Under the pieces are notes generated by a model. The model did not search any database, had not been told where the DNA came from, and saw only the letters and a program-made list of their open reading frames with translations. Made by a program: the position numbers and the translations under genes. This document shows positions 5,807 through 9,313 of a stretch of 64,000 nt of DNA, in pieces (within the stretch, counting starts at the first letter, position 1; each line of letters begins with the position of its first letter). This DNA comes from Sporopachydermia quercuum (taxonomy: Eukaryota), in the NCBI GenBank assembly GCA_001599295.1, contig BCGN01000001.1, positions 1,364,001-1,428,000 on the forward strand, in the 5' to 3' direction.

Positions 5807-6793
5807 TATGAATATATTTCAGAGAAAATTGTCAATGCTAGTTATTAATGCTGAGTGCTGATAACTGGTGGTATTTATGAGAATTTCCAGTTCGGTTTAA
5901 CGTTTCAACAATTCCTTCTCCCAAGTATAGTGCTAGTGGGTTTGTGCGTGTGAAAAGACACAACTGGGAACACAAGACCTAATGAAATTGTACTTCCACT
6001 ATCCCGGCTGAACTACCCGTAATACAAAACACCAATGTTTATACAAAGGTCAAAAGAAAGACAGCTGATGTAAGAAAGCCCTTGCACACACAAAATCAAA
6101 AGACATTCTTCTACCACATTATGCTAATGTTGTGTTATTGGTTACTTGAAAGATTTTCGATGGTGAGAATCAAACTTGTCGACAGGAACGGAGGTAATTT
6201 GAGATATATAATGATCACCTAATCGTTTAATGAATGACACATCAACACCCGCCCACTCAACAACCGGGTAATTTTTGATTATGCCGTAAGGGTATATTAG
6301 TACGTCATGTGATCTCTGCTAAACCTTATGTATGTTTCCACCCTTGCAGGACTATACATGAATCATACATACAGTATAAAATAAACATGCTACAATAACT
6401 AGAAGAAAGACTCCATTTGATTATTCAATCGATAATATAATTCTTGATAATGCAGAAGTATTCCTGTTTCTCAATTTTAAGAAAAAAAGAAAAATACAAA
6501 ATTCTTTAATTTTCTTTTATTGTTCACTATACTTTGTATTTTCTATATTTTCAGAAGACTATAATAAGTTTGATTAATAGTATAGTAATTCATTTGATAT
6601 CATAAGGTACTTATCAGATAAGACGCGTTACATTGTGTGTTTACTTTTACAATTTGGCAGGTCCAACGAATACCAATATCAACAACAATTGAGAAGAACT
6701 GAAGTATATGATTGCAGTTTCAAAAACTTCAACAGACTGAACTCAAGATCAAAAGAGGATTTGTAACAAGGAACTGTTAATTGATTGTTTAAT

Positions 6794-8734
6794 ATGCGTG
6801 AAATTATCTCTGTTCAATGTGGTCAAGCAGGTATGTGATTTAACGAATAATAACAGTCCCCAAGATTGAAAGGGCGAAAAGAGGAGCAGAGTCAAGGGAT
6901 GTGCTATAGGAATGAATCTGGAGCTGTCTGTTTATTGATACTAACAATTGTGCATTTGTTAGGGTATGTTCAAGAACTAGAACTCTTTTGGTTCGGAAAA
7001 CTTCGTTGATGTGCAGAAGAAGAGAATTGGATCGTCATACCATATCCGCTCTGACGAAGTGTTATTTGTTTGGATCTTCAGCATCCAATTGTCACACTGA
7101 TTATCTCATAATTCACAACATGATTTATGTTTAATTTTTTCTTCTTATTACTGCTATTGTTGTTTAAATGCTCTGCATGGGTTTTTTTTTCCTAATCACT
7201 AACATCCCATTCACCTATCTAGAAATCAAGTTGCTACTGCATTCTGGAGTGTAGTGTTAAAAGAGCACGGTATCGATGAACAAGGATTTCTATCACAGAC
7301 AAGTGACATCAATAATCGTCTGGATGTGTTTTTTGAGGAAGCAGGTCATAAAAAATATGTTCCCCGAGCAGTGTGTGTTGACTTAGAGCCAGCTACCATT
7401 GATAATATTCGTAGTGGTCCTTTAGGTAATCTCTTCAGACCTGATAGTTTATTATCTTCCAAAGCAGGAGCAGGTAATACCTGGGCTAAAGGTTTTTATA
7501 CAGAAGGTGCAGAAATTTTAGAACCAGTATTAGATATTATTAGACGTGAAGCTGAAAGTTCCGAATCTTTACAAGGTTTTCAATTGACTCATAGTCTGGG
7601 TGGTGGTACAGGTTCTGGTTTAGGCACTGCTTTGATTGGTAGAATCAAAGAAGAGTTTCCTGATCGTATGATTGCAACTTACTCTGTTTTACCAAGTCCT
7701 AAAGTATCTGATACTATTACGGAACCATATAATGCTGTTTTATCATTGAATCAACTGATTGAAAACAGTGATGAAACATTCTGTCTTGATAATGAGGCTT
7801 TGTACAATATTGCAGCCAGAGTATCCAAAAAGGATCCTGATTATTCAAATCTAAACAGTCTAATTGCAAATGTTATGTCTGGTGTTACAACTCCATTTAG
7901 ATTTCCTGGTCAATTGAATGGAGATCTCAGAAAATTGGCGGTTAATTTAATTCCTTTCCCAAGACTGCATTTCTTCACCGTTGGATACGCACCAATTATG
8001 AACACTGCTGGTAAGGCATTTCAAGGCTATTCAGCCCGTGATTTAACAAATCAAATATTTGATCCTATAAATACAATGGCTGCCTGCAATTTGAACGGCG
8101 GGAGATATTTGGCTGTTTCTGCAATTTACAGAGGTAAAATCTCTGCCAGTGAAATTGATGATGCTATTCAACATGCTAAATTCCAACGGGCAGGCTTATT
8201 TGTTGATTGGATTCCTAATAACATTCAGTACTCAGTTTGTGATAAAGCATCGTTAGTTGCAGATAAATCTGCTACATTTATTGCCAATACTACTGCTGTT
8301 CAGGAACTGTTCACTAGAAATATCAGTCAATTCTCAAAGATGTTCCGAAGAAAGGCATTTTTAGAATGGTACATCAGAGAAGGAATGGAAGAATTGGAGT
8401 TTGAAGAAGCCGAAAGCAATTTGAGAGATTTAGTCAGTGAATGTAAGTTGCTTTTTAATTGTTCCGTTATGTATAGTCAACAATTTAGCATCATACGCTA
8501 CCTAGGCTGCTCTTCGCTAAGCAACTTCTCTGCTTCGGTGAATTTTTTTTTTTTGTTTTTGCTTGTTTGTCTGATTGTCCTTGTGTACTAACATTAATTC
8601 TTTTAGATGAACAATACCAACAGGCGACAGCTGATGACGATTATGATTATGATGTTGACGTTGACGTTGATGTGGAAGTCGATGTTGAAGATGCACCAAT
8701 AGCAGAAGCTCAAGGTAATGAGGATGAGTTTTGA
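6794..8734 (+). CDS. TUB2: Divergent beta-tubulin; exons 6794-6830, 6963 (1 nt), 7223-8442, 8607-8734
   Basis: The spliced product reads MREIISVQCGQAGNQVATAFW...GGGTGSG...LRKLAVNLIPFPRLHFF...LVSEYEQYQQA followed by an acidic tail. Introns 6831-6962, 6964-7222 and 8443-8606 each have a GTATGT/GTAAGT donor, a (T/C)ACTAAC branch and a TAG acceptor. Confidence 0.92.
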
Positions 8735-9313
8735 CCTACCCAGTTTCTGATTGATTCTTGAGTATTATACATATTTTTCCTTTTCCTTCTCTTCTGTTGT
8801 ATTTTCTCTTCTCATTTCAAACGATTGCTATTCGTTCTACTTTGTATAGTATTTAAGTATTGATTCAATCTCTTGTCTTGTCATTTCTCATACCCTTTGT
8901 TTGTTTGTCAGGTTGCATAGTAAATGGTGTTTCTTCTGATGCTTGTTAAACTCCAATATATAAAGTGTATTTAATATATAAAACAGTATGAATCAATCTA
9001 CGAAAGAAAATCAATCAATTTCAACTACTCAATTCATGATCATTATATCAGTAAAAATAACGAAACTCAAGATATTGAATGAGTAGAATAGTCCATGTAA
9101 AACAGATTATGAACAGTATGCCTAGAATAGCATACTGATAGTATAAGCTGCTGTATTGATCACTTAAGTTGGGTCAACTACATGAGTAGAACAAAATAAA
9201 TTAAAACAAAGTAAAACTGAATAAATATATAAATAAACATCGTAATACAAGTTAAATTAAAATAGTAATATCCAAAAAACAAATGAAATACATTCAACTT
9301 AGTAATAGTTATT

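Follow-up and report, generated by a model that had tools for sequence, protein, structure and literature searches.

Gly13 codon of a divergent beta2-type tubulin gene in the yeast Sporopachydermia quercuum is very probably assembled from three exons, one of them a single nucleotide

The part of the Sporopachydermia quercuum genome analysed here (hereafter the window) is a stretch of 64,000 nucleotides (nt) from contig BCGN01000001.1 of assembly GCA_001599295.1 (positions 1,364,001 to 1,428,000, forward strand), and it carries a tubulin gene whose Gly13 codon is very probably assembled from three exons as G/G/A, the middle exon being the lone G at window position 6963 (Table 1; all positions are those of the window). 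G6963 is separated from each neighbouring exon by a complete intron with its own 5' splice site, branch box and 3' splice site, and the joining of exon 1, G6963, 7223-8442 and 8607-8734 by their coordinates gives 1386 nt, i.e., 461 codons, with no internal stop. An earlier reading of this DNA from the sequence only (the sequence-only reading) had placed the end of exon 1, both introns, the lone G and the start of the main exon, and all of these coordinates proved correct when the DNA was reread.

Table 1. Predicted exons and introns of the tubulin gene in the window
Feature	Position	Strand	Length	Description
Exon 1	6794..6830	+		ATG at 6794-6796 to G, base 1 of codon 13; encodes M-R-E-I-I-S-V-Q-C-G-Q-A plus G; ends in ...CAAGCAG
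Intron 1	6831..6962	+	132 nt	GTATGT 6831-6836, TACTAAC 6939-6945, TAG 6960-6962; branch A 18 nt before the 3' end
One-nucleotide exon (predicted)	6963..6963	+	1 nt	G, base 2 of the Gly13 codon; basis: restoration of GQAGNQ, chance test, identity in three runs
Intron 2	6964..7222	+	259 nt	GTATGT 6964-6969, CACTAAC 7197-7203, TAG 7220-7222; branch A 20 nt before the 3' end
Main exon	7223..8442	+		A7223 is base 3 of codon 13, followed by AAT CAA GTT; N14 to E419 plus base 1 of codon 420; Tubulin GTPase and Tubulin_C domains
Intron 3	8443..8606	+	164 nt	GTAAGT, TACTAAC at 8586, TAG; phase 1, within the conserved S-E-Y-E-Q-Y
Last exon	8607..8734	+		Acidic C-terminal tail rich in D-V/D-Y repeats; TGA stop 8732-8734

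The encoded protein matches the Pfam families Tubulin (PF00091, 1.3e-52) and Tubulin_C (PF03953, 1.6e-33) and has the GGGTGSG signature in the main exon, whose 406 residues align end to end with solved beta-tubulin chains, the first residue, N, falling on chain residue 14. Beta chains were matched in all 60 PDB entries listed, with 5w3f_B the best (7e-164). The label of beta-tubulin given in the sequence-only reading is thus supported by the domains and the PDB matches, but it has to be narrowed, as the protein is not an ordinary beta-tubulin and belongs rather to the beta2-type class. Exon 1 encodes Ala12 in place of Cys12, and the top database matches all fall into a separate class with GQAGNQ instead of GQCGNQ (class 2 below), from Geotrichum, Yarrowia, Trichomonascus, Blastobotrys, Nadsonia, Tortispora, Lipomyces and Dipodascopsis. 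Members of this class are 70-84% identical to one another, while the window protein is 63-65% identical to them and 59-61% identical to canonical beta-tubulins. Its best database identity is 65%; for the pyruvate carboxylase encoded in the window, matches of 80-83% are found in many yeasts. A maximum-likelihood tree places the window protein outside the canonical clade (100/100 support, stem 0.54), and its exact position within the class is unsure because its end branch, at 1.21 changes per column, is six times the median. Three columns are fixed differently between the classes, and the window protein has the class-2 residue in two of them and the canonical residue in none; of the columns without variation in 21 reference beta-tubulins it keeps 145 of 153, and of those without variation in 12 class-2 proteins 172 of 186. 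Judged by these comparisons, the gene is intact and under constraint, and it is a divergent, fast-evolving extra beta-tubulin of the beta2 type known from early-diverging budding yeasts, not the canonical one.

The copies in Yarrowia and Geotrichum are described as additional fast-evolving 'beta2-tubulins' (Zhao et al. 2014, PMC5381371). The window protein resembles these beta2-type tubulins (P32925; PMC5381371) in the GQAGNQ motif, in its position outside the canonical fungal clade, in its long branch and in being best matched by them, and differs in being far more diverged than the class members are among themselves. Both tubulin classes are present among the sampled proteins of Blastobotrys, D. 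uninucleata and L. oligophaga, and a canonical beta-tubulin copy probably lies elsewhere in the genome of S. quercuum. The C-terminal tail (8607-8734) is unusual: D-Y and D-V/E-V repeats follow one another in it, and its last residues are E-D-E-F, while the reference tails are rich in E/D. Two metagenome loci (L003 and L016) hold intronless tubulin genes with GQAGNQ that are 54-60% identical to the window protein.

The case for the one-nucleotide exon starts from the T1 loop. Its residues 10-15 (G10, Q11, A12, G13, N14 and Q15) do not vary in any of 12 class-2 proteins, and among the GT-AG introns considered the GQAGNQ loop was obtained only with G6963. When this base is omitted from the joined model, translation stops after 22 codons, as was to be expected from the frameshift that the sequence-only reading had predicted for skipping, and the use of the next AG (7229-7230) keeps the frame and loses G-N-Q, again as predicted. 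The claim that only G+G+A restores the GQxGNQ motif was borne out by an enumeration of all GT...AG pairs (donors within 6810-6999, acceptors within 7150-7299), in which 14 single introns keep the reading frame open through the whole main exon but none of the 14 yields GQAGNQ; the one-nucleotide exon is therefore the sole canonical (GT-AG) solution. The least damaging of the single introns run either from donor 6835, the second GT of the hexamer, to 7222, which adds one residue (I), or from donor 6831 to the next AG (7230), which removes G-N-Q. Within TAGGGTATGT the sole AG is at 6961-6962 and the sole GT at 6964-6965.

The layout was compared with chance by means of a strict pattern (branch box, 3-60 nt, AG, one base, GTATGT). 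When the 360-nt interior was shuffled 20000 times with its dinucleotides preserved, this pattern turned up once and a looser version eight times. Across the window, on both strands, the strict pattern occurs once against 0.04 expected (200 shuffles). The succession of branch box, AG, G and GTATGT is not due to chance, and the lone G is not an assembly error either: Logan contigs from three DNA runs of two studies (2016 and 2023), at most one of which is independent as the other may be the assembly's own source, each span 6600-8800 in one piece with no differing letters and no gaps, so that the error around 6830, 6963 or 7223 that the sequence-only reading had thought of did not appear.

Several other mechanisms were considered and rejected. 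In a stwintron, one intron interrupts a signal of the other, while here each intron has an unbroken GT, branch box and AG, none of which overlaps with those of the other, and TAGGGTATGT has no second AG or GT. A zero-nucleotide recursive site does not agree with the one G that stands between AG and GT, would leave the frame broken, and its pattern has no match in the window. Ribosomal frameshifting on the skipped mRNA would, by reasoning, put Glu for Gly13 in the invariant loop and ignores the internal splice module. Against an origin by duplication or from a mobile intron, the best local alignment between introns 1 and 2 scores 16, and other copies in the window are only chance matches of 10-17 nt.

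Three points weigh against the one-nucleotide exon. The splice pattern is read from DNA, no RNA run being among those listed for 6600-8800; the path that skips G6963 (5' site 6831, branch box 7197, 3' site 7222) is also fully canonical; and the very long branch together with a best identity of only 65% makes a partial loss of constraint possible. Two canonical paths would also suit the speculation, put forward in the sequence-only reading, that inclusion and skipping of the G are regulated and that the skipped mRNA, which meets an early stop, is cleared by nonsense-mediated decay (NMD), thereby tuning the level of tubulin. Yeasts tolerate excess beta-tubulin poorly, and they are known to couple unproductive splicing to NMD. 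However, of the two branch boxes the one that favours inclusion (TACTAAC, at 108 nt from the first donor) is the stronger and lies nearer, and no switch-like RNA structure is evident, the predicted fold of 6794-7260 being no more stable than those of shuffled sequences (z = +1.16; 89 of 100 shuffles fold as well). The dosage argument is weak because the gene is an extra paralog of the beta2-type class and not the single essential beta-tubulin gene, and we regard such a switch as unlikely.

It is less likely still that 6831-7222 is spliced out as one intron of 392 nt, with the G left out every time, which would make the frameshifted gene a dying extra copy or the source of a decay transcript, or, in the variant that uses the AG at 7230, of a protein that lacks G-N-Q. 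The 5' site at 6831, CACTAAC at 7197 and TAG at 7222 do form a canonical intron by themselves, a loss might be tolerated in an extra, fast-evolving class of paralogs, and a public model of G. candidum uses exactly the solution that deletes GNQ. Yet a gene that stops after 22 codons would hardly be expected to have kept a frame of 461 codons, three sets of splice signals and 145 of 153 invariant columns on a long branch; the internal TACTAAC-TAG-G-GTATGT module was met in only 1 of the 20000 shuffles, G-N-Q is invariant in all 12 class-2 proteins, and the first AG past the branch box is 7221-7222, not the 7229-7230 that the variant needs. Least credible of all is one intron with non-canonical borders and the same mRNA, GT...TA (exon from G7222) or TA...AG (exon 1 ending with G6831), or an ordinary intron hidden by an assembly indel: the mRNA junction alone cannot discriminate here, as G6831 or G7222 could supply the base, but the 11 introns tabulated in the window all start with GT and end with AG, the perfect internal module would be left unexplained, and no difference was found in the contigs of the three runs from two studies.

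If the one-nucleotide exon is accepted, each of its flanking introns would be recognised across itself, by intron definition as in S. cerevisiae, and the two would be removed in succession. Only 1 nt lies between the 3' site of intron 1 and the 5' site of intron 2, which would make two spliceosomes sterically exclusive; since both sites could not be occupied at the same time, the sequential removal that the sequence-only reading had proposed on the basis of intron definition is reasonable, and the same was put forward for Arabidopsis (PMC4674806). Intron 1 would be the likelier one to go first, co-transcriptionally, because transcription has to proceed for about another 235 nt past its end to reach the branch box of intron 2 and because it has TACTAAC against CACTAAC. 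With intron 1 out, ...CAG-G would serve as the 5' exon for GTATGT at 6964, and this order would also guard against skipping. The opposite order would be canonical as well, the removal of intron 2 leaving TAG at 6960-6962 to be followed by G-AAAT. We infer from the DNA that the mature mRNA carries G6963, and the order of splicing likewise.

The same junction is abnormal in public models of related genes. The N-termini of all fetched class-2 proteins gave 67 flagged rows, of which P0084 and P0105 (canonical class, filamentous fungi) and P0242 (a basidiomycete) were dropped and 64 kept, many of these being strains or cluster mates and not independent. A clean GQAGNQ is read in 39 of the 64 rows; nine have an insertion right behind G13, one lacks G-N-Q, one has G13 replaced by A-C-S, and 14 have another N-terminus. 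The 11 models that are abnormal at G13/N14 come from eight species. One residue is added in N. fulvescens (+I), L. tetrasporus (+T) and D. uninucleata (+N), and longer insertions are found in L. kononenkoae (+TY), Limtongia smithiae (+YISSS) and L. starkeyi (+ML, the second model being a read-through of 54 residues). T. ciferrii has the replacement of G13 by ACS, and G. candidum has +I in GenBank AAB20557.1, +M in Swiss-Prot P32925 and the deletion of GNQ in CDO53275.1.

The first inserted residue is I, M, T or N in eight of the nine insertions. Such residues would result from a donor of the form GTAT.., GTAC.. or GTAA.. right after base 1 of codon 13, with G+GT taken as codon 13 and A-T/C/A-N as codon 14. 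As when the second GT of a G|GTNNGT donor is chosen, gene predictors would have extended exon 1 by 4 or 7 nt and so mended a deficit of one base. In the L. starkeyi read-through (G-M-L-W...) GT recurs after 7 nt, which matches the need of the +ML model. Four of the 14 other N-termini begin downstream or are unreadable (P0271, P0281, P0283 and P0286), and the ten informative run-on open reading frames (ORFs) all have S or R immediately before N14, as given by an acceptor ...AG ahead of base 3 of codon 13. P0271 (JGI/IMG, 444 residues) has an N-terminus, V-V-K-Q-E-S-Q-V, that resembles exon 1 in another frame joined to the main exon; a possible source is a faulty or differently spliced contig from a relative of Geotrichum. 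Altogether, seven of the eight mis-modelled species fit a donor in phase 1, after base 1 of codon 13, combined with an acceptor in phase 2, before base 3.

For the beta2-tubulin of Geotrichum candidum (P0039, P0262, P0258 and P0264), three conflicting public versions exist at G13/N14. The two repairs that are possible in the window, +I and the deletion of GNQ with V regenerated, are those found in the G. candidum records. The ORF of P0264, from short Logan/ENA contigs (the longest of 1917 nt) that may be transcripts, is identical to the GNQ-deleted model over 449 of 449 residues, yet it has the exact GQAGNQ. The reviewed Swiss-Prot entry P32925 probably carries a spurious residue. Taken at the level of protein models, the public models of the gene's orthologs in eight species are wrong at the same junction, which is a new finding, and the one-base deficit is probably old and shared, because the models of seven of the eight species fit the phase-1 donor and phase-2 acceptor and the G. 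candidum versions conflict. The orthologs may solve this deficit in the same way, with a one-nucleotide exon.

Whether the one-nucleotide exon is an ancient, conserved feature of the beta2-type genes of the early-diverging budding yeasts Lipomyces, Dipodascopsis, Geotrichum, Trichomonascus and Nadsonia, kept since these lineages split and mis-modelled since 1991 up to and including a reviewed UniProt entry, is in our view evenly balanced. The arguments on the other side are that conservation in the relatives is based on protein models only, and that clean rows make up 39 of the 64 in class 2. At least Yarrowia reads straight across codon 13, its ORFs being continuous there on long genomic contigs, so that the layout cannot be universal; a clade of Logan proteins is also continuous across codon 13, and Limtongia fits a phase-2 donor with no deficit. 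The read-through model P0257 of L. starkeyi NRRL Y-11557 (502 residues) contains ...I-T-N-N-A-G-M-M-M..., which could represent a TACTAAC-like box and an AG that abuts GTATG with no spare base, and this would disagree with a one-nucleotide exon at that place.

A metagenome scan returned 18 loci with 49-62% identity, and the 16 examined were all continuous over codon 13 or had a short intron after Q15, which is uninformative. A scan of prokaryote genomes gave two contaminant tubulins (55-58% identity), a viral scan gave none, and a protein search with the 60 N-terminal residues of P0029 gave 17 matches, among them the new P0242 and P0243, and no additional class-2 ortholog. In the canonical proteins P0084 and P0105 of filamentous ascomycetes the mis-modelled, run-on N-termini break just ahead of G13, which suggests a phase-0 intron between codons 12 and 13 in these fungi; together with phases 1 and 2 in the yeasts, this would make three intron positions within two bases.

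Eleven introns of 71-324 nt were tabulated in the window, including the three of the tubulin gene; all are GT...AG, with donors GTATGT, GTAAGT, GTAGGT or GTGAGT, NACTAAC branch boxes and the branch A 7-25 nt before the 3' end. Ten of them were placed by the restoration of a conserved protein and the eleventh, in a TFIIIC-like gene, by splice signals alone. Introns 1 and 2 are inside the range of the nine other homology-supported introns, and a single 392-nt intron would be the longest. By this count the window is intron-rich for a budding yeast.

The pyruvate carboxylase gene (13359-12600, minus strand) has three introns at its 5' end (13277-13182, 13160-13066 and 13057-12734), which enclose tiny exons of 21 nt (13181-13161) and 8 nt (13065-13058). 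Both restore the ...LVANRGEI-A-IRIFR... of the closest homolog, and the frame is broken if the 8-nt exon is dropped. Because this gene needs both of them, very small exons would appear to be part of normal gene structure in S. quercuum. Its donors GTAGGT and GTGAGT are off-consensus. The TFIIIC-like gene (47400-46400, minus strand) appears by eye to have at least five introns, some with degenerate branch boxes (CTCTAAC, TCTAAC) and with donors such as GTGAGT and GTATGA. In an NPC1/NCR1-like gene (52439-52340, minus strand) the first AG (AAG, 7 nt past the branch A) must be bypassed, and the CAG 15 nt from the branch A is needed to keep the conserved C-x-M-Y-G-N-C-G.

One-nucleotide exons were called extremely rare in the sequence-only reading, with Arabidopsis APC11 as the reported case; that case is a known one, but the exons are less rare than this, being described also from Fusarium CYP621A and, 13 times, from Coprinopsis cinerea. 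A close parallel is the exon of Fusarium CYP621A, confirmed by SRA data and called the second example overall and the first fungal one (Nelson & Syed 2026, PMC12940212). It, too, is a single G in the middle of a Gly codon of a conserved motif, flanked as AG-G-GT, required by the frame and common to the orthologs, and it is absent or mis-modelled in nearly all public gene models (PMC12940212). CYP621A is a P450 gene of a filamentous ascomycete with short introns (139 nt in all), loose signals and confirmation by SRA reads (PMC12940212), whereas the window gene is a budding-yeast tubulin with GTATGT/TACTAAC signals like those of S. cerevisiae and introns of 132 and 259 nt, and is known here from DNA. 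Arabidopsis APC11 has a constitutive one-nucleotide exon inside a stretch that had been annotated as a single intron, and sequential removal by intron definition was argued for it (Guo & Liu 2015, PMC4674806). It differs in being a plant gene and in its base, A, and it was proven by cDNA and mutated reporters (PMC4674806); its exon is not conserved in rice, whose paralogs are without introns (PMC4674806).

A long-read annotation of Coprinopsis cinerea lists 13 exons of 1 nt in 13 genes (PMC12230235), from which it follows that such exons recur in fungi and that gene models break when they are missed (PMC12230235); this is a genome-wide list for a basidiomycete mushroom, without analysis of single genes, and tubulin and yeasts are not discussed in it (PMC12230235). 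The early-diverging yeast genus Lipomyces is known to have stwintrons and abutting donors (Ag et al. 2020, PMC7138796), and an intron has been described as having shifted by 1 nt by way of a stwintron intermediate (Fekete et al. 2017, PMC5587772). Zero-nucleotide recursive sites and stwintrons share with the window gene the adjoining 3' and 5' sites inside an intervening sequence and two consecutive reactions (PMC5587772, PMC7138796); the former keep nothing and the latter interrupt a signal of the other intron, while in the window both introns are complete and one base is kept. Our literature search found no report of a one-nucleotide exon for a budding yeast, nor for any tubulin gene.

What the S. 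quercuum gene would add to the known one-nucleotide exons is the combination of consensus yeast signals with a probable deep conservation and long-standing database errors. A conserved cytoskeletal gene is mis-modelled in at least eight yeast species, and the errors are of four kinds, i.e., an extra residue, the deletion of GNQ, the replacement of G13 and intron read-through. The combination of a phase-1 donor, a phase-2 acceptor and an internal AG-N-GT provides a rule by which cases could be searched for genome-wide. Because its signals are close to the S. cerevisiae consensus, the module should be portable to a standard yeast reporter, where it could be used to probe the order of removal, the steric exclusion of neighbouring spliceosomes and what prevents skipping. 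Two introns in phases 1 and 2 of one codon also offer a case for intron gain beside an existing intron and for 1-nt intron shifts. If the deep conservation is true, this would be the oldest known one-nucleotide exon, and the beta2-type tubulin genes of these yeasts would provide a natural substrate for studying how an intron-definition spliceosome handles 3' and 5' splice sites that are one base apart.

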